Shown here piece after piece: positions 7,299 through 62,938 of a stretch of DNA of 64,000 bases. The notes below the pieces were generated by a model, which was given only the letters and a program-made list of their open reading frames with translations, did no database searches and was not told the DNA's origin. How positions within the stretch are numbered: the stretch's first letter is position 1; every line of letters begins with the position of its first letter. The position numbers and the translations under genes were made by a program. The DNA is taken from assembly GCA_963788655.1 (NCBI GenBank), contig CAWBHS010000060.1, positions 224,001 to 288,000 of the forward strand. Direction: 5' to 3'. The DNA comes from an uncultured Verrucomicrobiae bacterium. Lineage in GTDB: Bacteria > Verrucomicrobiota > Verrucomicrobiia > Limisphaerales > JAFGQR01.

Positions 7299-7316
7299 CA
7301 CGCACAATCACGGCGG

Positions 7317-31263: not shown

Positions 31264-31333
31264 GATGCGGAATGGATGAGGCTGGCAGCGGATGAAACCA
31301 TCGAACCAACCAGAGAGCAAAGGCGACTCCGCC

Positions 31334-31474
31334 ATGGTGCTTCGTGAGCAATCGGCTTCGCAGCATGCGCCACTTGAGGGCGGCGCGTCAGTTCGGTATG
31401 CCGAGGTGAGTTGGGAAAGGATGATACGAGCCGTGGAAAAAGTACGTGAACGTTTGAATCATCCGGAAGACTGA
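31334..31474 (+). pseudogene. Small ORF carrying a probable truncated N-terminus of a nucleotidyltransferase-family protein
   Basis: VSWERMIRAVEKVRERL (31406-31456) matches, from my recall, the N-terminal helix of PVC nucleotidyltransferase-family proteins. The ORF stops five codons later. Confidence 0.4.
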
Positions 31475-31482
31475 ATCCGCCA

Positions 31483-33210
31483 ATGACCGAAGCCTCGCCC
31501 CAGATTAACGAAACGCACGCTGTATCGGCCAGCCCGGTCCTGAAAGCGAAGATCGAGGCGTTGCGCCGCAAACACGTTTCGGTAGCGACGTTCACCGGTG
31601 TTTCGCTGACCGTGGTTGTGGGCGTCGAACTGCTGGCGTTGGCGATGTTCGTGGATTGGTGGTTGGATCTGCCGTGGGCGGCGCGGTTGATCTCGCTGAC
31701 CGCCCAATTGTCCGTGTTCGCCTACCTGATCATTCGCTACGTAGCCGTGCCGCTCCTGCAACAACCAGACGACGATGAACTGGCATTAATGATGGAAAAG
31801 GCCCGGCCCGGCTTCCGCACGCGTTTGATTGCCTCGCTGCAACTCGCCCGGCCCGGGGCAATTCCGCCCAACGCTTCAAGCTCGATGGCGTATGCGCTGG
31901 TGCAGGATACCGAGGCCTTCGCGGCGCCGATGGATTTCCAGAAAATTGTTCCCACCGAACGACTCAAGAAATTGCGCATCCTGGCGGTCGTGATCCCCGT
32001 GGCGGCCCTCGTAGTGTTTACCGCCGGCGGTCAAACGAGCGTTGATTTGCTCCGGCGCGTGTTTATGGCCAACATTCCGGTGCCGCGCAAAACCCGCGTG
32101 TTCGTCGCGGATGGCGACAAGTTGATCGGAATTGGTGATAGCGTGCGGTTGGAAGCCACGGCGCAAGGCGTCATTCCCGCCACCGGTCTGCTCAAACTCA
32201 ACTATCGTGGCCGGCGAGATCAAGAATTCACCCTGGAACAGAATCGGGAGGATCGTTCGCGGTTTGGCCGCACGATTGACAACGTGCAGGATTCCTTTGG
32301 TTACCGCATCTATCTAAATGACGGCGCCAGCGAGACGTTCCGCGTGCGGGCGGTGCCGCGACCAACCGTGGCCACGATTCAGTGCGAACAGGAATACCCC
32401 GCATATTCGGGACTGAAGCCCGGACGGCGGTCGCTGGGCGATTTATCCCTGTTGGCGGGCAGCAAATTGAAGCTTCACGTGACCGCAACCAAGCCCTTGA
32501 AAATGGCCGCGCTGAAATTGGTGGGCCTGGACCAACACGCTTCGTTGCGCGTGGACGAAAAGCAACCCACCGAGTTGTTCGGCGAAATTACCATTCCCAC
32601 CAAAGACCTGACCGGCTTCTCCGTCGAAATGCTGGATACGGACGGTATGGAGTCGCGGGATAGCGCGGTGTATCGAGTGGAGATCATTCCCGACAAGGTT
32701 CCGTTGGTCCGCATCACTAGTCCGACGCGGAAAGAGGAACTGGCCACCCGAACCGCGAGACCGTTCATCGGCTACCAAGCCTCAGACGACTTCGCGATTG
32801 CCCAGGTCAGCTTGCGCTATAAATCCGAAGCCATTGACCACGGCGCCGAAAAAGCCGTTGAACTCGACTTGGGGGGAGAGACGCCGGCCATCTCCAAGCG
32901 CCAATTCCAATGGAACCTGGGCGAATTGCAGATCGCGGAAGGCACCATGATCGAGTATTGGATTGCGGCCCAGGACAACAACGACGCCACCGGTCCCGGC
33001 ATAGGCCGTTCGGACCACCAGTTCCTCCGAATCGTTAGTCCCGATGAAAAGCTGGCCGACATCTGGAACCGCGCCGGCGATTACATGGGCAGCATCGACG
33101 ATCTGGCGCAAGACGAAGAAAAACTGAACAATCATTTGGGTACCATCATCTTGGAACGAACCGGAGCCGGATCACTACGCACGGGGTCAGACCGGACTAT
33201 TGACAAGTAA
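31483..33210 (+). CDS. DUF4175-like membrane protein (TM helices + periplasmic beta-sandwich domains)
   Basis: Three TM segments, RTRLIASLQL, YPAYSGL, PDKVPLVRI and ASDDFAI...EYWIAAQDNND. It follows the VWA gene, as is common in PVC clusters. Confidence 0.65.
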   Translation: MTEASPQINETHAVSASPVLKAKIEALRRKHVSVATFTGVSLTVVVGVELLALAMFVDWWLDLPWAARLISLTAQLSVFAYLIIRYVAVPLLQQPDDDELALMMEKARPGFRTRLIASLQLARPGAIPPNASSSMAYALVQDTEAFAAPMDFQKIVPTERLKKLRILAVVIPVAALVVFTAGGQTSVDLLRRVFMANIPVPRKTRVFVADGDKLIGIGDSVRLEATAQGVIPATGLLKLNYRGRRDQEFTLEQNREDRSRFGRTIDNVQDSFGYRIYLNDGASETFRVRAVPRPTVATIQCEQEYPAYSGLKPGRRSLGDLSLLAGSKLKLHVTATKPLKMAALKLVGLDQHASLRVDEKQPTELFGEITIPTKDLTGFSVEMLDTDGMESRDSAVYRVEIIPDKVPLVRITSPTRKEELATRTARPFIGYQASDDFAIAQVSLRYKSEAIDHGAEKAVELDLGGETPAISKRQFQWNLGELQIAEGTMIEYWIAAQDNNDATGPGIGRSDHQFLRIVSPDEKLADIWNRAGDYMGSIDDLAQDEEKLNNHLGTIILERTGAGSLRTGSDRTIDK

Positions 33211-33348
33211 TTCACGCATTCGAGTTATGCCGAGTAAAAACGACTGGCAATAGTGCGGTCTGATTCCGTGGGAATGAGAGATTGTGATTCGGGCCAAATA
33301 GGATCAGTGTAGAGCCGGTCACAGACCGCAAATCAATCAATACCAATC

Positions 33349-36300
33349 ATGAAAACTCGATTCAGTTTTGGGCTGCTGACAATATTGGCATTTTCGCTCA
33401 GCAACTCCCTCGTTGCTGCGGCGGTTGCGCCGGTGCCGCAGAGCGCGGAACAACTGCTCCAACAGGAGCTCAAGCAGGAGCAAATCCGCACCACGACCAA
33501 GCGCGTGGGCGATCACTTGGACGCGGTCCTCAGCGAATTGTCCATTAACGACATCGGGGGGGAGTCGGCCCGGATGTTGCAGGCGATTCGCGGTGTGCTG
33601 GGCCGGTTGTCGGATGAAGACATGGGCCAGGTCATCCAGATGTTGCAGGAAGCCCGACAGGTAAACGACCCGCACGCCTCCACCCGTAAAGCGTCCGATG
33701 CTTATTCGAGTCAGAAAATCATCATCACCCAACTCAAGCAACTGGTGATCGAGTACCAACGACAACAGGCTCTCTACGAGATTTCGCTGCGCCTGAAAGA
33801 ACTGTCCAAGAAACAGACCGACAACATGTGGATCGGCGTCTGGCTCGCCAAAAAGACCAGAAGCCGCACGCCCAATTCCTTTGATGACGGTCAAAAGATC
33901 AACTGGAAGTACCAGCAGACCGAACAGGCCGCGATCAAAGACGAAACCGTCTTCACGCTTGCCCGCCTGGAGAAACTCGCATCCGAAATGGCCAATGGCC
34001 CCACCGGCGAGCGACCCAAAGCCGCCGTGCAACAAGCCCAGAATGGTGGCATCAAGCCAGCCCTGGACGCGGCGGTGGAAGAATTGGCAACCGGCAAGTT
34101 GCTCAGCGCCACCGGCAGCGAAAAGAAAGTCCGTGACCAACTGCGCGAGATTGCGCGGATGCTGTTGATGACCCCCGACGCAATTGACCTGTTGAAACAG
34201 GCCATCCTCGAACTCGAACGGGCCATCGACGATCAGCGAAAGGTGACGACCGAGACGGCCAAGGTCGAACAGGAAACGTCCGACGAAGTAGAAACCCGAC
34301 AAGCCTCAGTGGTCGACGCCACCGATTTAATCCGCCGGGACGTGGACAGTGTGGCGCCGGTAGCGGCGGAGTATTTGAAGAGCGCCACGGACAAGATGCA
34401 GGAAGCGCGCAGCGTGCTCAGCAGTCGCGACAATCCCAAGCGCAAGCAGGAAACCGCCCCGCCGCTGCAAACCGAAGCCGTTACCCAAATGCAACAGGCC
34501 CGCCGCGCGTTGCAGGAGCAGTTGGAAAAGGCCGAACAAATCGCCATGCAGCCGGAGAATCGCCTGGCCGCCCTTAAAGCGTTGCAGGAGCAGTTGCAGC
34601 AACTCATCAAGGAGGAAGCGAAACTCAAGACCGACACAGCCCAAACCGAGCAGAAGAACAAGCAGGATTTGCCCGCCCAGGCGCCGGCGCAAGGCGAGTT
34701 GAAGGATCGGGCGCAAGAAATTCAGTCGCAGGCAGCCAATCAGTCGGCGCCGGCGGCCGAGTCGATGGGTGAAGCCGCCAGCCAGATGCAAAAAGCCCAA
34801 AGCTCGTTGGCCGAAGGCAAGAACAACGAACCCGCCCAGCAGGCCGCTCTGGATGCGTTGCAGCGCGCTGACCAGCAACTGAGCCAGGACATCGCCAAGC
34901 TGGAACAGGCCCAAGCGGAATTGGCGCAATTGGAAAAGATTGGCGAGAAACTCGCCGGCATTATTCAGGACGAACAAAAGCTCCAATTGGACACGGCCAA
35001 GGAAGCGGTGAAACCGCAACCGAATGCCGATGCCGCCAAGGCGTTGGCCAACCGTCAAAACAAAACGGCGCAGGACACCGGCCAACTGCAACAGGAGGCG
35101 TCCACGCCGGCGCCATCGGCAGCGTCGCACATTGGCAAAGCCGGCGAGAACATGGACAACGCGAAATCGGAACTGAACAACACGTCGCCTCAGAACGCTC
35201 GGCCCAAGCAAACGGAAGCGTTGTCGGAACTCTATCTGGCCAAGAAAGACTTGGACAATCAGATGGATCAGTTGCGCGACATGCTCGGCCTGCCGCCGGC
35301 CAGCAATTCCCAGTCACTCGCCGATGCCGCCGCAATGGTTGACCAGGCGTTACGGGACGTGAATCAAGCGCAGGCAGAAATGATGCAGGCTCAACCGGGT
35401 CTGCTGGAATCGCTGGTCCAGCAGCAACAACAGATTGCCGCCGGGTTGGCGCAGCAATCTCAAGAAGCAGCCGACGCGGCGCCGTTGCAGCAGGCCCAAC
35501 AAGCTGCCAGCCAAGCGGCCCAACAATTGGCTCAAGCCAACCTGCCGGCGGCGGTTGGTTCCATGAAGAAAGCCCAGGGCGCAATGCAGCAAGCCATGGC
35601 CTCGAACAAACCGAAACCACCAGGCGAGGCCAATAGTCAATCCGGCCAAGCGCGGCCCAGCGGCGAATCCGGTCAAAGCGATCCGACCGCGCCGTCAGCC
35701 TCGAACGGGGAAGCGGTCACCCCGTCGGAGGCCAGTGATTTGGCCGGATTGTCCGAGAAGCAACAAGCCGTCCGGCAAATGGCGGAAAGCCTGCTGGTCG
35801 CCCAGCAGGCAGCCCCCGCTTCCGCCATGGAGGCGGCGGCTGGATTATTGCAGAACGCCGCCAACAACATTGGTCCGTTGGCGGCCGGCGCGATGGGGCC
35901 GCTGCCGGGTTCAGCCCAGAGTGCCGTGCAATCCGCCCAGGGCTCTGCCACCGACGGCGCCGCGCAAGCCGCCGCCAGTCGAGGCCGTCCCGCGCAAGCG
36001 AGCGCCGCGGCCGCCGCCCAGGCGTTGTCGCAGGCCCAGGCCGCACTGGCTTTGGCCCAAGCGGGATTGGGTGCCGATGCCGCCGCCCAAGCGCAGGGGC
36101 AAGGGCAAGGCCAAGGTCAGGGTCAAGGGAAAGGGCAAGCTCAAGGACAAGGCCAGGGCCAGGGTCAAGGTAAGGGACGCGGTCAAGGCCAAGGTCAGGG
36201 TCAGGGACGCGGCACCCCCTCGCCGCAGGGCACCGGTCGCCAAGGCAACTGGGCGGGAGCGGGCGGGGCCAATGGGGCGCGTCAATCCGCCGCGGGCCGT

Positions 36301-36435
36301 GGGGCGTTCACCGGTTTACCCGCGCGGGATCGGGCCGCCATTTTGCAATCGCAGGGCGAAAAATATCCGCAGGAATACGGCCCGATGGTGGAACAGTATT
36401 TGAAGAATCTTTCCGACCAGGCGGGCCAGAAATAA
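33349..36435 (+). CDS. Secreted Gln/Ala-rich long coiled-coil protein with a GQ-repeat tail (DUF4175 C-terminal-like)
   Basis: Signal peptide, about 900 aa of helical Q/A/E-rich sequence, and C-terminal LPARDRAAILQS...YPQEYGPMVEQYLKNL. Confidence 0.8.
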   Translation: MKTRFSFGLLTILAFSLSNSLVAAAVAPVPQSAEQLLQQELKQEQIRTTTKRVGDHLDAVLSELSINDIGGESARMLQAIRGVLGRLSDEDMGQVIQMLQEARQVNDPHASTRKASDAYSSQKIIITQLKQLVIEYQRQQALYEISLRLKELSKKQTDNMWIGVWLAKKTRSRTPNSFDDGQKINWKYQQTEQAAIKDETVFTLARLEKLASEMANGPTGERPKAAVQQAQNGGIKPALDAAVEELATGKLLSATGSEKKVRDQLREIARMLLMTPDAIDLLKQAILELERAIDDQRKVTTETAKVEQETSDEVETRQASVVDATDLIRRDVDSVAPVAAEYLKSATDKMQEARSVLSSRDNPKRKQETAPPLQTEAVTQMQQARRALQEQLEKAEQIAMQPENRLAALKALQEQLQQLIKEEAKLKTDTAQTEQKNKQDLPAQAPAQGELKDRAQEIQSQAANQSAPAAESMGEAASQMQKAQSSLAEGKNNEPAQQAALDALQRADQQLSQDIAKLEQAQAELAQLEKIGEKLAGIIQDEQKLQLDTAKEAVKPQPNADAAKALANRQNKTAQDTGQLQQEASTPAPSAASHIGKAGENMDNAKSELNNTSPQNARPKQTEALSELYLAKKDLDNQMDQLRDMLGLPPASNSQSLADAAAMVDQALRDVNQAQAEMMQAQPGLLESLVQQQQQIAAGLAQQSQEAADAAPLQQAQQAASQAAQQLAQANLPAAVGSMKKAQGAMQQAMASNKPKPPGEANSQSGQARPSGESGQSDPTAPSASNGEAVTPSEASDLAGLSEKQQAVRQMAESLLVAQQAAPASAMEAAAGLLQNAANNIGPLAAGAMGPLPGSAQSAVQSAQGSATDGAAQAAASRGRPAQASAAAAAQALSQAQAALALAQAGLGADAAAQAQGQGQGQGQGQGKGQAQGQGQGQGQGKGRGQGQGQGQGRGTPSPQGTGRQGNWAGAGGANGARQSAAGRGAFTGLPARDRAAILQSQGEKYPQEYGPMVEQYLKNLSDQAGQK
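36094..36213 (+). repeat. Coding hexamer-period repeat encoding a (GQ)n tract
   Basis: About 20 GGNCA(A/G)-type units translate as QGQGQGQGQGQGKGQAQGQGQGQGQGKGRGQGQGQGQGRG. Confidence 0.85.
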
Positions 36436-36464
36436 TCTCGTTCCACTGCCAAACCAACACGCTC

Positions 36465-37691
36465 ATGATGCACTCTTTTCCGCGCTTCGTACGGCAACGC
36501 GCCGAATCACTTGCCCGCGCTCCACATTGTCAACCGCTCCAATCCTGCAACCCTGCAACCCAGTATTATCATCTTGAGCCAAACGAATGTTCGAACGTAG
36601 TTGCCGAGGCGCCAACCACAGCGCCCGCGCTCCCCTATCGATCTCAACTCCGGCAGCCTCGTTGGCGCTGGGCATTCGGCTTCCTCATTTTGTTTCTCGT
36701 CCTGCCGCTGCCCGCCCAGCCGACGGTCGGACGGGACACGGTCAAGGTTGACGAGAAGACCGGTTCCATCATCCAAGGCGCATTGAAATGGCTGGCCAGC
36801 CAACAACTACCCAACGGCGCCTGGGGCAGTTCCGGCGAAGAGAAACGACATCCCATCGCCATGACGGGCTACACGCTGATGGCCTTCCAAGCGGGTGGCC
36901 AGTTGCCGGGCGAAGGCGAGTTTGGCAAGAACGTTAACGCCGGAATCAAATTCCTGCTCGATTCGTGCGGACCGGATGGTTTGTTCACGGACAGTAATAG
37001 CGGCCAATACATGTACGGGCACGGCGTTGCGGCAATTGCTTTGGCCGAAGCTTATGGCGAGACACGCATTCCCTCCATGCGGGCCAAGCTGGAAAAGATC
37101 ATCCGGGTGATCCTCACCTCCCAGAACCGCGAAGGCGGCTGGCGATATCGACCGGTGGCCAATGACGCGGACATTTCCGTGACGGTGCTCCAAGTGGTGG
37201 CCTTGCGGGCGGCCAAGAACGCGGGGCTCGACGTACCGCAAAAGACCATCGATAACGCCGTGAAATACGTGAAGAGTTGTTACCATGAGCGCAGCGGCGG
37301 TTTCGCCTATCAACCTGGACGGGAGCCGGGATTCGCCCGCACCGCCGCCGCCATTTACTCGCTTCAGGTTTGCGGGTTGTATGACGACAAAATGGTGAAG
37401 GCCGGTTCGGAGTATTTGCTCCAGAACCAGAAAACCAAACAGGAGTGGTTCACGTATGGAAATTTTTACGCCGCGCCGGCCCAGTATATGATTGGCGGCG
37501 AAATCTGGGCCAAATGGTACAAGAAAATCAAAGACATTCTGGAAGGCGCGGTAAAGCGCCAAGGGGATGTTTACTATTGGGAACCCCGGTTGGATCAGGG
37601 ACGAGGCGGCGTGGGCGAGGTGTATTGCAGCGCGGTGTACACCATGATTCTGGCGATGCCCTACCATTACATCCCGCTTTATCAGCGGTAA
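36465..37691 (+). CDS. Prenyltransferase/squalene oxidase repeat (alpha-alpha toroid) protein
   Basis: QW-like repeats WLASQQLPNGAW, SQNREGGWRY and SGGFAY, plus MYGHGVAAIALAEAYG and DISVTVLQVVALRAA. The true start may lie downstream of 36465. Confidence 0.85.
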   Translation: MMHSFPRFVRQRAESLARAPHCQPLQSCNPATQYYHLEPNECSNVVAEAPTTAPALPYRSQLRQPRWRWAFGFLILFLVLPLPAQPTVGRDTVKVDEKTGSIIQGALKWLASQQLPNGAWGSSGEEKRHPIAMTGYTLMAFQAGGQLPGEGEFGKNVNAGIKFLLDSCGPDGLFTDSNSGQYMYGHGVAAIALAEAYGETRIPSMRAKLEKIIRVILTSQNREGGWRYRPVANDADISVTVLQVVALRAAKNAGLDVPQKTIDNAVKYVKSCYHERSGGFAYQPGREPGFARTAAAIYSLQVCGLYDDKMVKAGSEYLLQNQKTKQEWFTYGNFYAAPAQYMIGGEIWAKWYKKIKDILEGAVKRQGDVYYWEPRLDQGRGGVGEVYCSAVYTMILAMPYHYIPLYQR

Positions 37692-37699
37692 CTTGACGG

Positions 37700-38932
37700 G
37701 TGCGACACCGACGGCGAAAACGATCCAAGAAGAGGGGCGGCAAAGCAATTCGCTGGACGGTGGCGCTGCTGATCATCGCGGGCTTGGCCGCAGTGAGTTG
37801 GGGCTTACGACGCGCGGGACGGGCTTCGGATTGGCAGTCCACTTTTCCGTTCGAATTCGTGACCTCGTTGGTGGCCGCACCGACCAATAAAATGATCCCT
37901 CCGAGTAAAGTGCTGCCGTCGCAAACCAAGGCAGATCTTTCGACGCCAGATCCTGTAATGTCCGCCCCCTCAGCGCAGATTTCTCCGCCAACCAATCGAC
38001 CTTCTACAAGTACGTCCAATGCTCCCCTGCCCTTGCCGCCAGTTCGGTCCGGAGCGACCAATGAAGGCACCGCACCGTTGACTTGGCGCGACATCCTGGA
38101 GGCGCAAATCAATTTGGTGCGTCATGGAATTTCCCCCGGCTCACTGGACGGGGTCATGGGATCGCAAACGCGGGCCGCCTTGCGCGCGTTTCAAGTCAAA
38201 ACAAAACTGCCGGCCAGCGGTCAGTTCGACGATGCCACCCGGGCGCGCTTGCGGACGGAGACCCCGCTCTTCACGCGCTACCAGGTGACCGCCGCCGACC
38301 TCGCCCGGCTGCAGCCGGTGGGCAAAACCTGGTTGGAGAAGTCCCAGCAAGCGCGCTTGGATTACGCCACGATTCTGGAATTGGTGGCCGAGCAAAGCCA
38401 GTCGCACCCTGATTTGATTCGCCGGCTCAATGCGGGAGCCGATTGGGAGCATCTGCTGCCGGGAACCGAACTGATTGTCCCGGACGTCCAATTCCCACCG
38501 GTCACCCAGAAGGCAGCGTATGCGGTCATTTACCTCGCCCACCGAAAGCTTCAGACCTTCGATGCCGCCGGGAATCTCCTGGCGCATTTCCCGTGCAGTA
38601 TTGCCCGCAACCTCGAAAAACGTCCGGTGGGTGAACTGCACGTGGCCGTAATCATAGCCCAGCCCAACTACACCTTTGATCCGGCGGTGTTTCCCGAGTC
38701 CGCCGAAGGACGCGAATTGGGTCGCAAGCTGGTAATCCAACCGGGCCCGAACAATCCGGTGGGCGTGGTTTGGATCGGCCTCGACAAGCCCGGTTATGGT
38801 ATCCACGGCACGCCGAGTCCGGAGCTCGTGGGCCGCACCGAATCTCATGGCTGTTTCCGTTTGGCCAACTGGAATGCCGAGTACCTGAAATCCATGGCGT
38901 GGGTGGAGATGCCGGTCTTTGTTGAACCTTGA
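37700..38932 (+). CDS. L,D-transpeptidase (YkuD family) with a peptidoglycan-binding domain
   Basis: TM anchor, Pro/Ser linker, PG-binding motif DGVMGSQTRAALRAFQ, and catalytic region PGPNNPVG...YGIHGT...SHGCFRL. Confidence 0.92.
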   Translation: MRHRRRKRSKKRGGKAIRWTVALLIIAGLAAVSWGLRRAGRASDWQSTFPFEFVTSLVAAPTNKMIPPSKVLPSQTKADLSTPDPVMSAPSAQISPPTNRPSTSTSNAPLPLPPVRSGATNEGTAPLTWRDILEAQINLVRHGISPGSLDGVMGSQTRAALRAFQVKTKLPASGQFDDATRARLRTETPLFTRYQVTAADLARLQPVGKTWLEKSQQARLDYATILELVAEQSQSHPDLIRRLNAGADWEHLLPGTELIVPDVQFPPVTQKAAYAVIYLAHRKLQTFDAAGNLLAHFPCSIARNLEKRPVGELHVAVIIAQPNYTFDPAVFPESAEGRELGRKLVIQPGPNNPVGVVWIGLDKPGYGIHGTPSPELVGRTESHGCFRLANWNAEYLKSMAWVEMPVFVEP

Positions 38933-39139: not shown

Positions 39140-41761
39140 ATGAAAAGGCCCTTTGTTACCATCATACTCGCCGGCGGAAAAGGCTCCCGTATGGGGTCCA
39201 GCGATAAACACAAAGTCTGTTTCGAGGTGCTGGGCGTGCCGGTCATCATCCGCGCCATCGAAACTTACAATTTGTGCAGTTCCTTGTTGAACCTCGTGGT
39301 GGTGGGCATGAAAGCCGAGACGGTAATGGCAACCGTGAACGCCCGGTTTCCCGGCACCATCTATGCCTTGCAGGAACAACCGCGCGGTACCGGTGACGCC
39401 GCCCGCCGCGGCGCCGAAATGCTCGAACGCCTCGGCTATGACGGCGAGGTGCTGGTGGTGGCCGGGGACAAAGTCATCGAACCGGGAGTCATTCGCCGGT
39501 TGCTCGCCACGCACCGCAAAACCGGCGCCGATGTCACCCTCGCCACCGCCAAACGGCCGCCGCATTCCAGCACCGGCATTCTGCTGAAATCGCCGCGTGG
39601 GAATATCGTGGGCATCCTCGAAGAAGCTGAACGGCAGCGATTGTTGGCCTTGGCTGAACTCGACCAGGTATTCCAAACAAAGACCAAGCTGTCCCCCGCT
39701 CTCGTTCGTTCGATCGTCGCCCGAAACTGCACCGCCAAAATGGCGACCGCCCTGCTGCTCCGATTGCTTCCGGACGGCGAATCCGTAGCCCCGTTGACGC
39801 GCGCTCAGTTCGAGCAATGCTTTACTCCGGAGGAACGCCGCGGTCGGTTGAAGATTGGCCGTCTGGCCGTGCCCGCGCAGGAAATCCTGGAACGGTCCGA
39901 CCAGATGAACCTGTCCACGTATCTCTTCCGCGCGCCGGTCCTGTATGACGCCCTCCATCGATTAAAGCCCGCGCGCAACAACCAGGAAGAATACCTGACC
40001 GACGTGTTCGAAGTCCTGGCCCGCGGCCAACATCCGGCCCGCGTCGTTGGCTGTGAAATCCATGACCTGAACGACATTATGGCCTTCAACAATCCCCAGG
40101 AATTGTTGGCCATCGAGGAAGTCTATCGCACGAAGCAGGAACCGGTCGCGGTCCAGGCGTCGCCGACCGCCAGTCGAACATTGGCGCTCCCGCAGGCTTG
40201 GGCGAATCTCCTCGCAGCCCCCGGAACCACCGCCCGCCGTCAATTTCGCCATTGGTATGGTGAGGACGTGCCGGCGGCCTCCGTGCAGGCCGTGCTGGAC
40301 GCTTTCATCCGGCGGCATGGTTCCGATCGGCCGGTGGCCATCATCCGGTCGCCCGGTCGGATCAATTTGCTGGGCCGACACATTGATCATCAAGGCGGCA
40401 CGGTCAACGTGATGGCCATCAACCGGGAAATCTTCATGGTGGCCGCGCCGCGCTCGGATGACCGCGTTACGCTGGCCAACACGAATGAATCGCAGTTCGC
40501 CGGTCAGGAATTCCGCATCTCGGACCTCGTCGCCAGTCTGGACTGGGACGATTGGCAGCACGTGATCGACGGGCCGCGCATCCAACGAATGCTCGAAGCG
40601 GCGCGCGGCGATTGGGCCAATTACATCAAGGCGGCCATCCTGCGTTTGCAGGAATTGTTTCGTGACCGCCGGCTGCGTGGCTTGGACCTCATGGTAGGCG
40701 GCGACATTCCGATGGGCGCGGGTTTGAGTTCTTCGTCGGCGCTGGTCGTGGCCACGGCGGAAGCAATCACTGCCTTTAACCAGTTGGCGGTCAGCGCGCG
40801 CCGGTTGGTCAGCTTGTGCGGGGAAGGCGAATGGTTCGTCGGCACCCGCGGCGGCGCGGCGGATCACGCGGCCATCAAACTGTCCCGGCGCGGTTACGTG
40901 ACGCGCGTGGGCTTTTTCCCGTTCCAAATCGAAGACTCGGCGCCCTTCCTACCGGAGCACGACTTGGTGGTGTGTAATTCCGGCGTCTATGCAGGCAAGT
41001 CGCACCAGGCGCGAAACACGTTTAATGAAAAGGTCACCGCGTATCACCTGGGTCGGATTTGGGCAAAAATGCTGCGGCCCGACCTGGCGCCACGCCTCCA
41101 GCAGTTGCGCGACCTCAATCCGGAGCATCTCCGGATGAACCGGGCGTCCTTCGGCCAGTTATTAACCCAATTGCCCGCTCGTCTGAGCCGCACCAAAGTG
41201 CAGGCCGCGTTCGCTCAAATGGCCGCCGCAGACCGCGCCCAAATCGAACGCCTGCTCGGCAGTCATGATGCGCCGGTGAATGGTTATGCCGTGCGGGACG
41301 TGGTCCTGTTCGGCCTTTCGGAAATGGCCCGCGCCCGGCGTTGCCTCGCATTGCTCAAAGCCGGACAGGCGCGGGAACTGGGCCGGCTGATGAACATTTC
41401 GCACGACGGTGACCGTGTTTCTCGAACCGCGCTCGCCACCAAATCGCAGAAGAAGAAAACGTCCGCGGCAGATCGAGTGTTGCTCGACTGGGCCCGCAAA
41501 CGTGGTCGGCAAAGCAGCCTGACAGATCTCTCCGGCGCTTACGGTTGCAGTTTGCCGGCCATCGATGAGATGGTTGACTTCGCTCTTCAGCTTCCTGGAG
41601 TTGAAGGCGCCCAACTGGCTGGGGCTGGACTCGGGGGCTGCGTCATGGCATTGGTGCAACGAGCGCACACGACGGAAGTCTTGCAAGCGTTGGGCCAACA
41701 AGGAATCCGGGCGGAAGTGTTTCGCCCCATTGCCGGCGCGAGCAGCTTGGCGATGGGGTAA
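39140..41761 (+). CDS. Fusion of a GlmU-like sugar-1-phosphate nucleotidyltransferase and a GHMP (galactokinase-family) sugar kinase
   Basis: N-terminal motifs ILAGGKGSRM..K, QEQPRGTGDA and NNQEEYLTD. C-terminal motifs PGRINLLGRHIDH, DIPMGAGLSSSSA, LGRLMNISH and GAGLGGCV. It is a single uninterrupted ORF. Confidence 0.88.
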   Translation: MKRPFVTIILAGGKGSRMGSSDKHKVCFEVLGVPVIIRAIETYNLCSSLLNLVVVGMKAETVMATVNARFPGTIYALQEQPRGTGDAARRGAEMLERLGYDGEVLVVAGDKVIEPGVIRRLLATHRKTGADVTLATAKRPPHSSTGILLKSPRGNIVGILEEAERQRLLALAELDQVFQTKTKLSPALVRSIVARNCTAKMATALLLRLLPDGESVAPLTRAQFEQCFTPEERRGRLKIGRLAVPAQEILERSDQMNLSTYLFRAPVLYDALHRLKPARNNQEEYLTDVFEVLARGQHPARVVGCEIHDLNDIMAFNNPQELLAIEEVYRTKQEPVAVQASPTASRTLALPQAWANLLAAPGTTARRQFRHWYGEDVPAASVQAVLDAFIRRHGSDRPVAIIRSPGRINLLGRHIDHQGGTVNVMAINREIFMVAAPRSDDRVTLANTNESQFAGQEFRISDLVASLDWDDWQHVIDGPRIQRMLEAARGDWANYIKAAILRLQELFRDRRLRGLDLMVGGDIPMGAGLSSSSALVVATAEAITAFNQLAVSARRLVSLCGEGEWFVGTRGGAADHAAIKLSRRGYVTRVGFFPFQIEDSAPFLPEHDLVVCNSGVYAGKSHQARNTFNEKVTAYHLGRIWAKMLRPDLAPRLQQLRDLNPEHLRMNRASFGQLLTQLPARLSRTKVQAAFAQMAAADRAQIERLLGSHDAPVNGYAVRDVVLFGLSEMARARRCLALLKAGQARELGRLMNISHDGDRVSRTALATKSQKKKTSAADRVLLDWARKRGRQSSLTDLSGAYGCSLPAIDEMVDFALQLPGVEGAQLAGAGLGGCVMALVQRAHTTEVLQALGQQGIRAEVFRPIAGASSLAMG

Positions 41762-42092: not shown

Positions 42093-43406
42093 TCACGCCG
42101 CGCGCTGGCCGGCATCATCCTGGTCTTTCGTCTGGCAGCCGCAACGCTCACGCCATGACGATAGTCTGCCCAGCAATCCCAGCCGCTGCAGATAGGCGAC
42201 GTCCAATTGAAAGAGATTCGTGCCCGCTTTGCCTGCCCTTCGCTCGTAATCAAGCACGTTGGCCACGTGAACCGCGGTCAACAGGGAAAACGCGCGGTCG
42301 CCAGACTTGACCGGGCAATGGTGCAAGGCGATGGCTTCGAGAATCGGCAGGGGCAAGCCCCACGTGCCCAACAGACAAGCGCCCACTTCGGCGTGGCTGG
42401 CCCCAAAGATCTCCATCTCGACGTCGCGAATCGAAATCTCCCGCTGTGCCGCCTGCCGCAACAAGGTGCTGTACTGCGTCGGAATGTTGGCCGCCAGCAG
42501 CAACATGCCGACGTCGTGCAGCAAACCCGCGGTGAACGCCATTTCGCCCTGACGCGGGTCGTGGGTCTCGGCCATGGTGATGGCCATGCTGTGCGCTCCC
42601 GTGGCCATGCAGTGCATCCACAATTGCTCCAGTTTGAATTCGGGACACTTCGATTTGTCGAACTGCGTAAAGACGTGCGACAACAGGATCATCGACTTGA
42701 TCCGCTCGGCCCCTAAAAACATCACCGCTTCGGCGGTTTCGGTGATTTGTTGGGGCAACGCGAAAAAGGTCGAGTTGACCATGTGAAGAATTTTGGCGGT
42801 CATCACCGGATCTCGTGAAATCAACTTGGCCACGAATTCGAGCGATCCCTTCGGCGACTGCAATTCGCTCATCACCTGGGTGTAGAGCGTCGGCAACGCG
42901 GGCAATTGCGTCAACTGTTCCATCAGCCTCTTGACCGCGTCATTGGCCACCCATTCCTCCATCCGAAAGGCGCGGTTGACCACGGCTTGAAACGTCTTGC
43001 TATCGAAACCGCGCGGAATCACATAGGGCGGTCGCCCGAGACAACTCTTGAGCGGTTCTTGTTCCTCGGTGCCGCAGCCAACGAATCGCAACGTCTTTGG
43101 GCACCGCCGCGTTACGCGGTTCAGCAACTCCACGCCATTCATCTCCTCCATCTGCAATTCGGCAACGACCCCATCGAACGGCGCCTGATCCATCAGTTGC
43201 AAGGCCGCTGTGCCTCCCGCGGCAAATACCAATTCCCATTCGTCCCGATACGGCGCCAACACCTTCTCGGCTTGCTGCAACCGGTTGGCATTGTCATCAA
43301 CATACAGAATCCGACGGCGCGGCAGCACCGGGACAACCGACGCCGCTTTGCTGCGTTCGGCATCAGGCCCCGCGGCGCGTTTGGGTACTTCGTTGCGACG
43401 GCCCAC
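42093..43406 (-). CDS. Receiver + HDOD domain protein (atypical receiver)
   Basis: Receiver ILYVDD...VVAELQME and HDOD motifs DPVMTAKILHMVNS, AGLLHDVG and HAEVGACLLGTWGLP. Confidence 0.9.
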   Translation of the reverse strand: MGRRNEVPKRAAGPDAERSKAASVVPVLPRRRILYVDDNANRLQQAEKVLAPYRDEWELVFAAGGTAALQLMDQAPFDGVVAELQMEEMNGVELLNRVTRRCPKTLRFVGCGTEEQEPLKSCLGRPPYVIPRGFDSKTFQAVVNRAFRMEEWVANDAVKRLMEQLTQLPALPTLYTQVMSELQSPKGSLEFVAKLISRDPVMTAKILHMVNSTFFALPQQITETAEAVMFLGAERIKSMILLSHVFTQFDKSKCPEFKLEQLWMHCMATGAHSMAITMAETHDPRQGEMAFTAGLLHDVGMLLLAANIPTQYSTLLRQAAQREISIRDVEMEIFGASHAEVGACLLGTWGLPLPILEAIALHHCPVKSGDRAFSLLTAVHVANVLDYERRAGKAGTNLFQLDVAYLQRLGLLGRLSSWRERCGCQTKDQDDAGQRAA

Positions 43407-43515
43407 CAGCGGAGGGCAATGCTGACGCGACGGTCTCAGCCGTGGTATCGCTGGACCGGTTGAATGAAACCGTATGTTTCAGTTTTTCGAACAAACCCAT
43501 AAGCCAATGCACGTG

Positions 43516-44709
43516 TTAGGCGGCCAACGCGGTCGTGGTTACTTTCCGCCAGACCTCCACCCGTTCATCAAAACCGAGCGCTGCAATGTAATCCATATCG
43601 ATCACATCCTTGGCTTCCGGCGGGAGGGAATCGTCGCACTCGTGTTCCAGGGCGTTGGCGGCATGAAGCGCGGTCACCAGCGTAAATTCCTTTTTCGGAT
43701 GCTCCGCCGGCCGATGATGGAATCCCACGCCGTCCACGACCGCCGCCGGTAATCCCCACAAGCCAAGCAAATACGCGCCCACTTCCGCGTGCGTCGCGCC
43801 CAGGAACTGTTTTTCGACCCGCCATAATGGTTGGGGTTGGGCCACCCAGTTTTCAAGAACCCGGCGGTAGTCCTCCGTCAAGCCGGACGCCAACACCAAC
43901 TTGCCCAGATCGTGCAAGAGGCCGGCGGTAAACACTTCGTCGCCGAGATGCGCGCGGTTTTCCGCATTCACGATTTGCCGGGCCAGCATCCCCACGTGCC
44001 AGGAATGTTGCCACAAGTGTTCGAGCGACAGGCCGGGCAAGGCCACCGGGGTGAACTGGCTGAAAGCTTGCACGCCCAGCACGAGGTTCTTCACGGTGCC
44101 GATGCCCAAATAGAAAATCGCCTCGCTGGGATTGTTCACCGGTTGGCGCAAGGCAAAGTAGGCCGAGTTAATCAATTGCAGCACCTTGGCCGTCAACCCC
44201 AAATCCCGCGAAATCAAGGAGGCCAGCTTGGGAATCGAGGGTTCCTCCTGCCGCAGTTCCTGCACCATCTCGAGGTAAATACCCGGCGCACTGGGAAGCG
44301 CCTGCAATTGGGACACCACCTGTTTGAGCCGGGGATCCAACGTTTGCCGGGAAGCCAATGCGCGTTCAATGGCTTCACGCAAGGCCAGGGCCGCACAGGG
44401 TTTAGAAATCAACTGGTGAGCCACCCCCGCCAGGCTGCGGCTGGCTTCGGCGTCGTCGCCCTCGGCCATGGCAATCCGCACCGCCTGCGGGAATTTCCGC
44501 ATGATCCAAGTCAGCAACTGCGCCCCGTCCATGCCGGGCATGGCCACGTCGGCCACGACCACGTCGAACGGCGTCTTGAACATCCGTTCCAGCGCCCGCG
44601 GGCCATTATTCAGGAACTCCATTTCATACTGGCCTTGCATCGGACGCAGAGCCTCCTGAAGCTGCTCGAGCGCCGCGGGTTCGTCATCTACCAATAGAAT
44701 TCGTTTCAT
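43516..44709 (-). CDS. Receiver + HDOD domain response regulator
   Basis: Canonical receiver ILLVDD...VVADVAMPGMDG...KP and HDOD motifs AKVLQLINSA, AGLLHDLGK and HAEVGAYLLGLWGLP. Confidence 0.92.
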   Translation of the reverse strand: MKRILLVDDEPAALEQLQEALRPMQGQYEMEFLNNGPRALERMFKTPFDVVVADVAMPGMDGAQLLTWIMRKFPQAVRIAMAEGDDAEASRSLAGVAHQLISKPCAALALREAIERALASRQTLDPRLKQVVSQLQALPSAPGIYLEMVQELRQEEPSIPKLASLISRDLGLTAKVLQLINSAYFALRQPVNNPSEAIFYLGIGTVKNLVLGVQAFSQFTPVALPGLSLEHLWQHSWHVGMLARQIVNAENRAHLGDEVFTAGLLHDLGKLVLASGLTEDYRRVLENWVAQPQPLWRVEKQFLGATHAEVGAYLLGLWGLPAAVVDGVGFHHRPAEHPKKEFTLVTALHAANALEHECDDSLPPEAKDVIDMDYIAALGFDERVEVWRKVTTTALAA

Positions 44710-48569: not shown

Positions 48570-51500
48570 TTAGGCGGCGGCGGCATTCGCTTCGGCTATG
48601 GCGGCGTCGAGGAGGTTGGCGGCCGACGGCAATATTTGTCGCAAGGCCTCCGTCCGCCGGCACAGTGCTTCCACCGGTTCGCGCGCGTTGAATTGCAGCA
48701 ACCGCCGATACCACGTGATGAATTCCCGGCTGAGCTCCGCCTCGAATTGGGCCGGCAGGGAAAACTGATTATCGCCCACGACGGTTTCGCACAGGATCAA
48801 TGCCGCCACGCAACCGGGATCGGCGGCCGATTTTAACTGACGCCAGACCGGCAACGCTTCGGCGCAATGGCCGGCCAACGTCAACGCCTCAGCCCGCTGC
48901 TGGCAAATCGTCGTGTCCTGGGGCAGATGCCGCTGGGCCTCGCCAGTCCAATTGAGCGCGACCTCAAGAAATTCAGGCCGGCTGAGCGCAAGTTGGCCGC
49001 CTTGCCGCCAAACCGGCGCCTCCTGAGGATGCTCACTGGCCAGCGCAAAGAACAGGTTCAAGGCCTCCACCGGCTGATCGTGACCGGCCATGAATCGTGC
49101 ATAATCGAGCCGCGCCAGCCGCGACTGCGGATCGTCCTGAATCGCTTGCTGGAATTGTTCGGCGGCGGTGGCGTGCCCGAGTTGGGCCAGACACAACGCG
49201 AGACAATGACGCGGGCCGGCCTTGAGGATTTCCTGGTTGACCGGCGTGAAGGCGGGCTGTTGGCGCTTGGCCAGACACTGCCTGAACTGTTCCGCCGCTT
49301 CCAGAAACTGCTGCTGTTCCATGAGCGCCAAACCCAGGGTGAAGTGCATCGACGCTGTCAAACCGCCGCGCCGCGCCAGCGGACCCGTCAACAATTGAAT
49401 GACCGCGCCGTGTTCCTTGGTCTTCAACAATTGCGTGCTGAACTGCGTCAGCAGTGCCTCGCGAATCTCCGGCGTCAATTGCGCCGCCGGCAATGCGACG
49501 GCCGCGTTGAACGCCTCCTGGTACCGCTGCAAACCTTCCGGAAGCCGTCCGGCGCGCACCAATTCGAGCCCAAGATTCAGCAACAGATTCGGTTCATCCG
49601 GCAACTCCTCGACGGCTTTTTCCAACAGGCGGAGATTCCGTTCGACTTTGCTCCGCTGCTGGGTTATAGCCTGCGTGTAGCCATGATGGATCAACGTCGC
49701 TTTGCCAAACTTGTTATCGAGACCCCATTCCTGGCGGCGCACTTCCACACTGCTGAACACCTGCTCGTGAATCCGACCGACGTAGAACAATCCGGGCGCA
49801 TTGCGGAACAACCGCGGCACAAAACTGCGGCCTTCCGCCTCTCGCCCCACGTCCAACATCGGCAGGCGATAAGCCATCACGCCGCCGGCTTGAAGCTCTT
49901 GTTTCAATACGTCGCGATCTTGGGCGCGCAATTCCTCGTCGGCGTCGAGCACCAGCACCCAATCACCGCGGGCATGTTCCAACGCCGCATTGCGGGCCAC
50001 GCTGAAGTCATCCGTCCATTCGCACGAATAGACCTCGGCGTTGAACCGCGCGGCAATGGTGGTAGTCCAATCCGTGGACCCAGTGTCCATCACGACGATC
50101 TGGTCGGCAATCGGTCGCACCGATTCCAGGCACTGACCGAGGAACTGTTCCTCGTTTTTGGTAATCAAACAGACGGTCAGCCGCGGAGCGTGCCGGAAAT
50201 CCCGCGCCAGTTCCGAGGGCAGCGGCAGTTCCAATCGTGGCTTGCCGCCTTTGCCGGGCAGCGACTTTGAGAACTTACGGGCCGGCTTCCATTTCGGCGC
50301 CAGCAACCGCGCCTGCTCGGCGCAACGTTTCGCCAGCGGAATATCTCCAACGTCCCGGGCGATCTCGGCCAGCAACAGAAAGGCCTCCGGATGATAGGGC
50401 CGGACGCCGATGGCATCCACAGCAGATTCCCAAGCCGGCAGCCACTTTTTGTTCCGGTGCAACTCGTGCGCCGGTCCCAAACGACCCCGCAACGCCGCGG
50501 GCGGTAGTTGGATCGGTGCCGCTTTGCGCTGGGGATGGGGCGACGAGTTACCGATGGTGAACGGTTGTTGGTGCGAAGTAATCTGCCGTAACCGTTGGGC
50601 CGCCACCTGCGCAGCCCGATCCCAGGTCCACTCGCGGCGCACGCATTCGCTGGCCGCGCGCCCTTTGGCCCGAGCTTCCGCGCGATGTTCAAACACCCAC
50701 CGCATTTTGGCAGCGAGCTCGGGTAGATTCGGTTCCAACAGCCAGCCTTCGCCGGCCAGCTTCATGCCACTGATCACATCGCCAATGGCCCGCCGTTTCG
50801 TTGGCACGCGATAGGCAAACTCATCGGTGGCAAAATCATCCGTGGCGCCGCCGCCGGTCACAATGACTGGCAAGCCGCACGCCATCGCTTCCAGCACGGG
50901 CAGGCCGAAGCCTTCGCCGCGATAAGGATGCACCAGGGAGTCGCACGCGGTGTAAAGTCCGGCCATGTCCCCGAGTTCCTCCGTGAGATAGAGAATCTCC
51001 GGGGCATTCGGCCGGGCTTGCGCGGCGCGGATTTGCGCCTCGAAGGTCTGGCCGGCATACACGCTCTGGCCGCCAAAATCCTTGATCACGAGACACACGT
51101 CGTCCGCCGCGGTGAAGTGCTCGCAATACGCCTTCAGCAACAGGTCCGGCCCTTTGCGATGGATGGTGCCGCCGACAAAGAGAAACTTGAACGATTTGCG
51201 CGTCGCCAAGGGCATGGGCGGCACGGCCGGGTGGAAGATGGACGGATTGATGCCGTTAGGCACGACGTGAACCTTCTCCGCCGGCACACCCGACTCGACA
51301 TACATCCGTTGCGCGCACGCCGAGGGCACCCAGACCTCGTCCACGCGCTGGCAATTGCGCACCCATTCGGCCGGGATGCGCCCGTATTCCCAGGGCTGAA
51401 TCAGCACCCACGCACCGGAGGCAGGAGCCGTCCAATTGGGCGGCCAGGCATGGCGAACGGTGACCTGCGTATTCGGCGGGGCGACCGGCTGCAATTCGCG

Positions 51501-55496: not shown

Positions 55497-55509
55497 GGCG
55501 GAGGACGGG

Positions 55510-55747
55510 AATGAAATCCGAATTCCGAAAGTCGAAAGCCGTAAGAATTCTGGAGCCCGAAAGCCGAAGGGCATTGGGTGTGCCGAAAGGAGTCCTGTCC
55601 ATGAACCTCGTAGCCGCCGATGTCAGTCGGCGCATGCCTATGGCTTCGAAAGTCAGCGCCGACTGACGTCGGCGGCTACGGAGTTCACGTGTTTCGGGTT
55701 TTGGCATTCGGGCTTCTTTCGGATTTCGGACTTCGGATTTCAGACTT
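55510..55747. repeat. Nested repeat: GTAG-type REP doublet inside inverted heptamer (TCCGAAA / TTTCGGA) arrays
   Basis: CGTAGCCGCCGATGTCAGTCGGCGC (55609-55633) pairs with GCGCCGACTGACGTCGGCGGCTACG (55656-55680) with 1 mismatch. The flanks are AATCCGAATTCCGAAAGTCGAAAG on the left and TTTCGGATTTCGGACTTCGGATTTCAG on the right. Confidence 0.8.
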
Positions 55748-56957: not shown

Positions 56958-56990
56958 GGACTTGGAATGGGGCTATGACCTTGGTCCGAG

Positions 56991-57016
56991 GGACACGCTA
57001 AGGCGGGAACTCCAAC
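56991..57016. repeat. Single REP-like unit
   Basis: GGACACGCTAAGGCGGGAACTCCAAC is an imperfect palindrome in an intergenic gap. It has no partner in the window, and the family assignment is from recall only. Confidence 0.3.
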
Positions 57017-57095
57017 CGCACCGGTGCCGGCTGCTTGCTGGATTTCAACCTGTCGGTTGTTCGGGGGCGTGGTCAGGGAAATCAAGTGCATTGTT

Positions 57096-58286: not shown

Positions 58287-58287
58287 C

Positions 58288-62770: not shown

Positions 62771-62829
62771 GAGGGGCAATGGGGCCCGATTGGACCGTGC
62801 GAAAGGCGCGCACCCGGCGGCGAGAGAAA

Positions 62830-62905: not shown

Positions 62906-62938
62906 CAAGGCTTACTGGGCAGTGTTTCCCTCATGGCC

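Follow-up and report, generated by a model that had tools for sequence, protein, structure and literature searches.

What does a protein do that joins, in one polypeptide, a nucleotidyltransferase resembling GlmU and a kinase resembling galactokinase (GalK)? This question is raised by a gene from an uncultured Verrucomicrobiae bacterium (contig CAWBHS010000060.1, positions 224,001 to 288,000), a stretch of 64,000 nucleotides that is referred to here as the window and to which all coordinates below apply. The gene is an uninterrupted open reading frame (ORF) on the + strand, which begins at 39128 (TTG) or 39140 (ATG) and ends at 41761. The ATG at 39140 is the likely start, because the N-terminus that it yields (MKRPFVTIILAGGKG) aligns with the N-termini of the homologues, and the whole ORF (39140..41761, +) then encodes 873 amino acids (aa) and a stop codon. 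The database entry for it (P0002, 856 aa) begins only at an internal Met, with loss of the nucleotidyltransferase signature loop. In Pfam scans, residues 7-168 match NTP_transf_3/NTP_transferase and the kinase part matches GalKase_gal_bdg (388-437), GHMP_kinases_N (494-580) and GHMP_kinases_C (797-855), with domain E-values of 1e-14 to 1e-16, which are far beyond chance. No hexapeptide or left-handed beta-helix (LbH) acetyltransferase domain is matched by Pfam in the 873-aa protein, and the kinase follows directly after the transferase. The ORF and the Pfam matches thus bear out the architecture described in the initial annotation of this DNA, viz. a GlmU-type nucleotidyltransferase without the beta-helix fused to a galactokinase-family kinase.

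The function that we propose for this fusion is a salvage route in one protein. A free N-acetylhexosamine (HexNAc), viz. N-acetylglucosamine (GlcNAc) and/or N-acetylgalactosamine (GalNAc), would first receive a phosphate from ATP on its anomeric hydroxyl through the action of the C-terminal GalK-type kinase, and the N-terminal GlmU-type domain would combine the sugar-1-phosphate with UTP to give UDP-GlcNAc or UDP-GalNAc and pyrophosphate. The UDP-HexNAc formed would be available for envelope and polysaccharide synthesis, and the salvage route would bypass the 6-phosphate route via NagA, GlmS and GlmM. The order of the domains, the retained catalytic residues, the extent of the family and the pattern of its gene neighbourhoods are results of the computation, and from these we infer that both domains are active, that UTP is the nucleotide, which class of sugar is used and that the steps are coupled. 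The two parts of the proposal differ in their strength. The conversion of a free sugar, first with ATP to its 1-phosphate and then with UTP to the UDP-sugar, by a single coupled polypeptide is given a probability of about 0.8, and to this extent the initial annotation, which had proposed that a free sugar is turned into a nucleoside diphosphate (NDP)-sugar within one polypeptide, holds. The identification of the substrate as GlcNAc and/or GalNAc, by which the protein would be a HexNAc 1-kinase and UDP-HexNAc pyrophosphorylase for salvage, is given about 0.5.

The coupled enzyme is proposed because the catalytic residues of both parent families are conserved and because of the order of the domains. 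The GlmU-type uridylyltransferase domain occupies approximately residues 1-330 (39140..40129, +) and lacks the LbH. When E. coli GlmU was aligned with seven members of the family, 24 columns were invariant in 8 of the 8 sequences, and these include the signature loop and the uracil, metal and sugar positions, viz. G14, G16, R18, K25, Q76, G81, T82, G83, D105, G140, E154, N169, E195, Y197, T199, D200 and N227 of GlmU. We assume that these positions comprise the catalytic Arg and Lys, both metal ligands and the residues in contact with uracil and with GlcNAc, the last of these presumably being G140, E154 and N169. The signature loop LAGGKGSRMGSSDKHK spans residues 10-25 (39167..39214, +), and the stretch VAGDKV (39458..39475, +) carries the metal-binding Asp110, which corresponds to GlmU D105, followed by Lys111. 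However, the domain also differs from GlmU. In addition to the missing LbH, Ala108 stands in place of Tyr103 and Lys111 is found where GlmU has Val106, with G109, D110 and K111 present in 20/20 aligned sequences. A helical insertion at about residues 165-233 (39632..39838, +), which is variable in sequence, is found in the Verrucomicrobiota-type members and three other sequences of the 20-sequence alignment, whereas it is missing from GlmU and from most members of other phyla. For this N-terminal part, the GlmU models of NCBIfam are far ahead with 95-102 bits, the models of other sugar nucleotidyltransferases giving 40 bits or less. These scores are, however, below the cut-offs of 367-611 of the GlmU models (101.9 bits against 611 for the best; 95.5 against 366.85 for TIGR01173), so that the equivalog threshold for GlmU is not reached. 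Since the transferase is GlmU-like, UTP rather than GTP is the probable nucleotide.

The galactokinase-family GHMP kinase domain (residues 385-873; 40292..41758, +) is about 100 residues longer than GalK owing to insertions. It is preceded by a segment consisting of a linker and N-terminal kinase helices (residues 331-384; 40130..40291, +), where the model confidence is low for residues 333-345 and whose second half is retained in the stand-alone kinases of the family. Of the functional positions of GalK, the domain retains R28, N30, H35, D37 and D174 together with motifs II and III; R407, D575, the GAGLSSSS loop and GAGLGGC match R28, D174 and the motifs of E. coli GalK, so that the catalytic and motif residues are in place. 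In the kinase motif, GRINLLGRHIDHQGGTV, the Glu of GalK is replaced by Arg, and the nucleotides 40355-40426 translate to GRINLLGRHIDHQGGTVNVMAINR, exactly as quoted in the initial annotation. When E. coli GalK (GRVNLIGEHTDYNDGFV) is placed against it without gaps, the Arg lies on Glu34 and the His on the Tyr of GalK, and the same placement is seen in alignments with human GALK1 and GALK2. Motif I, or the sugar-binding signature, GRINLLGRHIDHQGGTVNVMAIN (40355..40423, +) thus contains R407, which is the catalytic Arg of GalK, R413 (codon 40376-40378) in place of Glu, the retained D416, and H417 in place of Tyr. Instead of the GalK signature GRxNLIGEHxDY, the protein has GRINLLGRHIDH, with Arg for Glu and His for Tyr. 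Motif II, the phosphate-binding loop GDIPMGAGLSSSSALVVA, is found at 40700..40753 (+). The loop GEGEWFVGTRGGAADHAA (40820..40873, +) contains R570, A574 and D575; D575 is the catalytic Asp of GalK, A574 aligns with Met173 of E. coli GalK, and R570 is specific to the family, the equivalent residue being Asn in GalK (E. coli Asn169), Pro in GALK1 and Glu in GALK2. Further along, ARNTFNEKV (41009..41035, +) has F628 for the sugar-binding Tyr of GalK (E. coli Y223) and a retained N629, and in motif III, GAQLAGAGLGGCVMALV (41606..41656, +), Q825 replaces the Arg of the GalK motif RMTGxGFGGC. The kinase therefore resembles GalK in its fold, motifs I-III and the catalytic Arg and Asp, but differs from it by the swaps of Arg for Glu, His for Tyr, Phe for Tyr, Ala for Met173 and Gln for the motif III Arg.

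The protein gives 142.9 bits with the galactokinase model TIGR00131, which is short of the equivalog cut-off of 226.65, and 54-123 bits with other GalK models, whose cut-offs are 385-509; every curated NCBIfam model is below its own cut-off for this protein. Its AlphaFold model (mean pLDDT, a confidence score, of 83.8) retrieves in fold searches GALK1, GALK2 and bacterial and archaeal GalK with target-normalised TM (structural similarity) scores of 0.72-0.85, those for GALK1 and GALK2 being 0.78-0.80. The closest solved relative by sequence is the human GalNAc kinase, GALK2 (2a2c; 98.4 bits, E 3e-27, in the search of PDB sequences), followed by GALK1 at 83 bits; GALK2, which is about 21% identical in the fold search, has GEHIDY where the window protein has GRHIDH. 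The presence of Phe for the GalK Tyr and of Ala for Met173 suggests a looser pocket around C4; both of these positions (the equivalents of Y223 and Met173) are taken by us to affect C4 selectivity in plant galacturonokinase (GalAK) and E. coli GalK. A separate observation is that a solved GHMP protein of 498 aa, deposited as 'AbGHMP' (PDB 9ulx/9uly), is matched by the kinase domain with E 1e-10 and by a long family member with E 4.5e-14; in literature searches for AbGHMP, the name was found in no paper.

How common are proteins of this kind? A word-index homology search returned relatives of 480-1528 aa, and the best 120 of 1222 were examined; besides the window's own copy, these are full-length fusions with 60-72% identity, and those of them that are named by organism are mostly from metagenome-assembled genomes (MAGs) of Verrucomicrobiota. 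The database names of the relatives are 'N-acetylgalactosamine kinase' (JGI), 'galactokinase family protein' and 'NTP transferase domain-containing protein'. With the kinase alone as query, fusions of about 800-825 aa with 44-48% identity were found in Planctomycetota, Hydrogenedentota and others. An exhaustive search of representative sequences gave 8182 matches at E<=1e-3, 3616 at 1e-10 and 410 clusters at 1e-30, the best 150 of these matches all being family members. The lists of the best 120 (full-length, and kinase-only with a length range set to leave out fusions) and best 150 (representative) matches consist of family members alone, with no plant galacturonokinase, GALK2 or other named outgroup kinase. 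In the ESM Atlas, the same family was found together with generic galactokinase clusters, and tblastn searches against plasmids gave partial matches to ordinary glmU and galK only. In the contigs of GTDB, taken with one genome per species, at least 807 stretches carry the motif patterns and at least 690 encode a relative. Of 78 loci, all from MAGs, 21 are labelled by NCBI as Planctomycetota, 15 as Verrucomicrobiota, 7 as Acidobacteriota, 6 as Chloroflexota and 6 as Hydrogenedentota, the remaining ones belonging to eight further phyla or having no label (10 loci). The family is large and widespread in uncultured bacteria and is without a name of its own in curated models, none of the curated NCBIfam models naming the fusion. 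Two of the labels call for caution. The members at L004 (labelled as an uncultured Bifidobacteriaceae MAG) and L012 (Candidatus Acidoferrum) are 66% identical to the window protein, which looks like an error of binning or labelling more than gene transfer. Further, three long members, viz. P0327 (1314 aa), P0363 (1307 aa) and P0383 (1129 aa), have 640-800 residues ahead of the kinase. No new Pfam domain is seen in these members of 1129-1314 aa, the residues before the kinase having no match at 1e-4; by eye, a region of beta-helix-like repeats and a transferase signature of divergent sequence are discernible, and a PDB search gave only a weak match to GlmU over residues 131-180.

The kinase domain is near-complete in 140 representatives, and in 68 of them it is preceded by a long stretch (>250 residues), the N-terminal transferase signature being present in 50 of these 68; the other 72, of about 500-560 aa, consist of the kinase alone. 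A tree built with FastTree splits all 140 from four annotated GalKs by a branch with a support of 100, the outgroup being made up of only these four rows (E. coli, B. toyonensis, E. gilvus and T. saccharophilum GalK, three of them taken from the plasmid tblastn matches) and including no eukaryotic kinases. A nesting of the kinase among GalK enzymes, which the initial annotation had named as a result that would count against it, is not seen with respect to these four GalKs. Within the family, the fused and stand-alone forms are interleaved. Another explanation has to be considered, viz. that no two-step salvage takes place, one of the domains being regulatory or inactive, or the kinase acting on another class of sugar with the transferase following it; such a sugar could be a neutral hexose, a pentose or a 6-substituted sugar such as sulfoquinovose. 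The stand-alone state of about half of the representatives (72 vs 68) is in favour of this explanation, as is the failure of all curated family models to reach their cut-offs. A sub-group of the family has also lost the catalytic Arg407, the residue there being Ser in 6 of 139 representatives (P0310, P0314, P0322, P0332, P0368 and P0380) and Leu in 2 (P0265 and P0271); in several of these members, moreover, the motif has D-N or D-V instead of D-H, and such kinases may be inactive or may work differently. Further, for the zebrafish glucuronokinase with a putative uridyl pyrophosphorylase (GKUP), activity of the pyrophosphorylase half in vitro could not be shown (PMC3938481). However, the window protein lacks none of the catalytic residues of the two parent families, and both domains are conserved at 60-72% identity in the best 120 of 1222 homologues. 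We therefore regard this explanation as quite unlikely, and the coupled two-step conversion remains the preferred one.

Which sugar, then, would be converted by the coupled enzyme? The motif Glu of GalK contacts the C6 hydroxyl of the sugar. The initial annotation had considered that its replacement by Arg suits a C6 carboxylate and that the protein may convert galacturonate (GalA) or another acidic sugar to its UDP-sugar. The loss of the Glu, on which this proposal was based, is a property of the whole family: in 139 alignable representatives, the residue at this position is Arg in 109, Met in 12, Val in 9, Thr in 4, Lys in 2, and Ser, Asn and Gln in one each, with Glu in 0 of 139. Arg is present at position 413 in 214 of 216 closer relatives, and the non-Arg forms belong mostly to two stand-alone clades. 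The column that best tracks the presence or absence of Arg at 413 is residue 825 in motif III. The 413/825 pairs are Arg/Gln (105), Met/Arg (7), Val/Gly (6), Met/Gly (3), Arg/Glu (3), Thr/Lys (3), Lys/Gln (2) and various singletons, compared with Glu/Arg in all four GalKs. In none of the 143 sequences (139 from the family and four GalKs) is a cation present at both positions; it is at 413 alone in 111, at 825 alone in 15 (the four GalKs included) and at neither in 17. However, a phylogenetically independent test of this coupling is underpowered (5 pairs, p about 1), and due to this the coupling, which is based on raw counts, is suggestive only. It can be interpreted in two ways. The acidic partner may have been lost and a lone cation kept, which could bind an anionic group, or a Glu-Arg bridge may have been rebuilt as Arg-Gln, with no bearing on the charge of the substrate. 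A Glu-Arg bridge between motifs I and III is common in GHMP kinases, and because the change at 413 seems to be coupled with that from Arg to Gln in motif III, Arg413 can be read as part of a structural pair swap and not as a carboxylate clamp. Its role may be to form a hydrogen bond with the sugar or to stand in for the pair formed by the motif I Glu and the motif III Arg.

According to the first of these interpretations, the enzyme would salvage an acidic sugar, viz. GalA, glucuronate (GlcA) or an N-acetylhexosaminuronate (HexNAcA), to the UDP-uronic sugar, with Arg413 holding the C6 carboxylate. This reading stays alive because of the missing Glu, Arg413, Arg570, Lys111 and the TviC-like epimerases encoded next to two of the genes. 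An unpaired positive charge is the rule in the family, exactly one cation being present at 413/825 in 122 of 139 members and never two, and the position of the Glu is cationic as Arg in 109 and Lys in 2 of them. A second family-specific cation is R570, which lies in the loop preceding the catalytic Asp; 121 of 139 representatives have Arg at this position, as against Asn in GalK and Glu in GALK2. Lys111, next to the catalytic Asp of the transferase, is present in 20/20 sequences, the corresponding GlmU residue being Val. R413, R570 and Lys111 are all family-specific and in or near the two active sites. The epimerases at L022 and L068 match best the model of TviC, a UDP-GlcNAcA 4-epimerase. The plant GalAK is a GalK-signature GHMP kinase that lacks the motif Glu, shares the stretch HIDHQGGTV with the window protein and phosphorylates an acidic sugar at the anomeric position for salvage; however, it is a stand-alone kinase with Ala at the Glu position, and it is paired with a pyrophosphorylase of the USP type, which is unrelated. 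According to PMC6329318, GalA-1-phosphate is made by an anomeric kinase and used by USPase, and a fusion of a glucuronokinase with a putative UDP-GlcA pyrophosphorylase exists in zebrafish (PMC3938481). However, several results speak against an acidic substrate. The transferase is GlmU-like at all 24 columns shared with E. coli GlmU; uronate- or pectin-type genes are nearly absent from the neighbourhoods, where they are limited to PcRGLX-like proteins in 2 loci (L026 and L031); no UDP-GlcNAc 6-dehydrogenase, which would mark a HexNAcA pathway, is found in the 22 kb of L022; in 28 of 139 members position 413 is occupied by Met, Val, Thr, Ser, Asn or Gln in place of a cation, and 17 of 139 have a cation at neither 413 nor 825; and the coupling of 413 with 825 permits a purely structural reading. 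Of the original uronic-acid proposal, an acidic substrate thus retains a low probability in view of R413, R570 and Lys111, whereas galacturonate or another uronate as that substrate is unsupported by the GlmU columns, the relationship to GALK2 and the neighbourhoods, and salvage to a UDP-uronic sugar appears unlikely. A broader formulation, viz. that the family provides a one-enzyme bacterial route from a free acidic sugar, be it a hexuronate, an N-acetylhexosaminuronate or N-acetylmuramic acid (MurNAc), to the UDP-sugar, is put forward tentatively and is doubtful; such a route, based on the unpaired cation left by the loss of the motif I Glu, may occur in at least a dozen phyla, mostly uncultured. 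To our knowledge, a one-enzyme pathway from an acidic free sugar to the UDP-sugar has not been described in bacteria.

The choice of GlcNAc and/or GalNAc as the substrate, which is preferred here, is made because of the GlmU-like pocket, GALK2 as the nearest solved relative and the pattern of the genomic neighbourhoods. For the latter, the ORFs flanking the gene in 68 loci, two per side and 234 proteins in total, were scanned with Pfam, and selected neighbours as well as the whole of L022 and L068 were scanned again with NCBIfam. In a strand count covering 69 sources, 67 of which have a downstream ORF, this ORF is on the same strand in 36 of 67, and in 10 of these 36 it encodes, after a gap of 0-57 bp, an enzyme acting on GlcNAc or MurNAc compounds. 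These are LpxA-like genes (L003 and L024), NagA-like genes (L040, L061 and L077; 209-225 bits, cut-off 225.65), epimerases with TviC as their best model (L022, overlapping by 1 base, 307 bits; L068, 253 bits; cut-off 760), a PIG-L/BshB-like deacetylase (L044), an Amidase_3 protein (L013, 8 bp) and a NAGPA phosphodiester glycosidase (L072). The family of TviC-type epimerases presumably also holds WbpP, and we take the two epimerases to be UDP-HexNAc(A) 4-epimerase-like. One example in which the setting is extensive is L022, where the gene lies inside a polysaccharide operon on one strand with PglF/E/D/C-like and FnlA/B/C-like genes and transferases of glycosyltransferase family 4 (GT4); the precursor pathways of this operon (PglF/E/D-like and FnlA/B/C-like) are assumed by us to start from UDP-GlcNAc. 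Among the neighbours in convergent orientation are genes for a GalM mutarotase (L031), an RbsD/FucU protein (L034) and a protein with a GH123 domain (L060).

However, a number of observations weigh against the assignment of a HexNAc substrate. No conserved neighbour emerged when 964 flanking ORFs from the 78 loci and the window were clustered by all-against-all BLAST; the largest cluster other than the family itself (72 sources) contains two-component signalling proteins from 9 loci. The ten GlcNAc-type neighbours come from about seven lineages in five or more phyla, 26 of the 36 same-strand neighbours have no relation to GlcNAc, and the NagA-like and epimerase-like matches are below the NCBIfam cut-offs. 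The gene's own neighbours in the window add little, an L,D-transpeptidase gene being upstream and a convergent response regulator downstream. Further, the motif Glu is retained in the human GalNAc kinase and in each of the four GalKs but never in this family, so that its sugar pocket is unlike that of every characterised HexNAc or hexose kinase of this fold, and R413, R570 and Lys111 would suit an anionic sugar.

The same neighbourhoods bear on a different amino sugar. In this explanation the protein would recycle peptidoglycan by converting MurNAc (and GlcNAc) to UDP-MurNAc, as a non-orthologous counterpart of AmgK and MurU, with one of the Arg residues binding the lactyl carboxylate. A widespread single gene without a fixed operon is what is expected of housekeeping recycling; cell-wall genes are nearby in a few cases, viz. 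an L,D-transpeptidase gene, which is adjacent in the window and no more than two genes away in L033, and the Amidase_3 gene 8 bp downstream in L013; and a GlmU-like transferase suits a 2-acetamido sugar while the family-specific Arg residues suit a carboxylate. However, the cell-wall neighbours are confined to three loci, and the matches among PDB sequences include GlmU but no MurU structure. The equivalents of GlmU E154 and N169 are invariant, and as we take these two residues to bind the free 3- and 4-hydroxyls of GlcNAc, the 3-O-lactyl group of MurNAc would clash with them. D416 is also kept in most members, and the aligned Asp of GalK is assumed to bind O3/O4. MurNAc recycling is accordingly the least probable of the explanations considered, and GlcNAc and/or GalNAc remains the substrate that we favour.

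The logic of the proposed HexNAc salvage has parallels in known systems. AmgK with MurU in Pseudomonas and NahK of Bifidobacterium phosphorylate amino sugars at the anomeric position, with uridylylation following, and bypass de novo synthesis, but the AmgK and NahK kinases have the aminoglycoside-phosphotransferase (APH) fold and not that of GHMP kinases. An APH-family gene is present two ORFs upstream of the fused gene in L065; it matches homoserine-kinase models and no named AmgK model. In humans, GalNAc is salvaged by the same two-step logic, from HexNAc via HexNAc-1-phosphate to UDP-HexNAc, by GALK2 and UAP1/AGX1. GALK2 is the closest solved relative of the kinase described here, and JGI names the family members accordingly. 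However, the human route consists of two proteins, GALK2 keeps the motif Glu and has Glu at the position of R570, and UAP1 belongs to a pyrophosphorylase family other than that of GlmU. Engineered chimeras of GalK with a uridyltransferase are reportedly among the nearest published cases, beside FKP and zebrafish GKUP. According to PMC11982464 and PMC12732313, Fkp/FKP of Bacteroides fragilis and plants is an L-fucokinase/GDP-L-fucose pyrophosphorylase, in which an N-terminal pyrophosphorylase and a C-terminal anomeric kinase of the GHMP type in one polypeptide convert a free sugar to the NDP-sugar. The window protein has this order of domains by Pfam, as does GKUP. However, both of its domains are of other sub-families than those of Fkp, the kinase carrying the GalK signature and the transferase being GlmU-like; no fucokinase Pfam domain is matched at E<=1e-3, the only families matched being the GalK-signature, GHMP and NTP_transferase families, so that the fucokinase-type and GDP-fucose pyrophosphorylase domains that characterise Fkp proper are not found in it. 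GKUP, according to PMC3938481, likewise combines an N-terminal bacterial-type nucleotidyltransferase with a C-terminal GHMP sugar-1-kinase and is proposed to convert a free sugar to the UDP-sugar; however, it is set apart by its description as an animal protein with a glucuronokinase-type kinase specific for GlcA, and its transferase is likened there to RmlA-type enzymes and not to GlmU. In literature searches, no description of a GalK-type/GlmU-type fusion in bacteria was found. The protein would thus be an addition to the known bifunctional sugar-1-kinase/NDP-sugar pyrophosphorylase salvage enzymes, the pairing of a GalK-type with a GlmU-type domain appearing to be new.

Within the window, the fusion gene is likely to be monocistronic, since a gap of 207 bp separates it from the upstream L,D-transpeptidase gene and the response-regulator gene downstream is convergent. 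A scan for promoters and terminators around the gene gave nothing exceeding the shuffled expectation. Directly upstream, on the same strand, lies a Bat-like run of genes (29013-38932, +) for a VWA/DUF7408 protein, two DUF4175-like proteins (575 and 1028 aa), a protein of the prenyltransferase/squalene-cyclase toroid type and the L,D-transpeptidase, which has peptidoglycan-binding and YkuD parts. Convergent to the fusion gene are two tandem genes for response-regulator/HDOD/HD proteins of 437 and 397 aa (42093-44709, -). At a distance of 7 kb, the region 48570-63985 (-) encodes a 2334-aa protein with two GT4 modules and one GT2 module, followed by two methyltransferases, a thiamine pyrophosphate-dependent enzyme, a B12-binding radical SAM protein and a NeuB/cupin protein, and this region resembles a large cluster that makes an unusual modified polysaccharide or sugar. 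Elsewhere in the window, a 1903-aa protein of immunoglobulin, cadherin-like, Big_9 and PKD repeats (19830-25541, -) is probably a giant surface protein, and an MdoG homologue (594 bits) stands beside a 705-aa GT2/GT21 glycosyltransferase (5190-8855, -), which we assign by similarity as an osmoregulated periplasmic glucan pair in a Verrucomicrobiota-like genome.

The replacement of the motif I Glu/motif III Arg pair by Arg/Gln throughout much of this family offers a handle on the role of that pair in GHMP kinases, and if the substrate should prove to be acidic, the nucleotide-sugar route would be new to bacteria. If both halves are active, the fusion would provide a natural single-enzyme catalyst for the synthesis of UDP-HexNAc. 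In the organisms themselves it would be a two-step shortcut, in one protein, from a scavenged amino sugar to an activated donor, which many uncultured bacteria of soil and water would use for lipid A, peptidoglycan and exopolysaccharides. The present annotation of these proteins, as 'galactokinase family protein' or GalNAc kinase, misses the predicted bifunctional role, and metabolic reconstructions of the use of amino sugars in Verrucomicrobiota, Planctomycetota, Acidobacteriota, Chloroflexota and Hydrogenedentota would, if the proposal is true, be changed by it.

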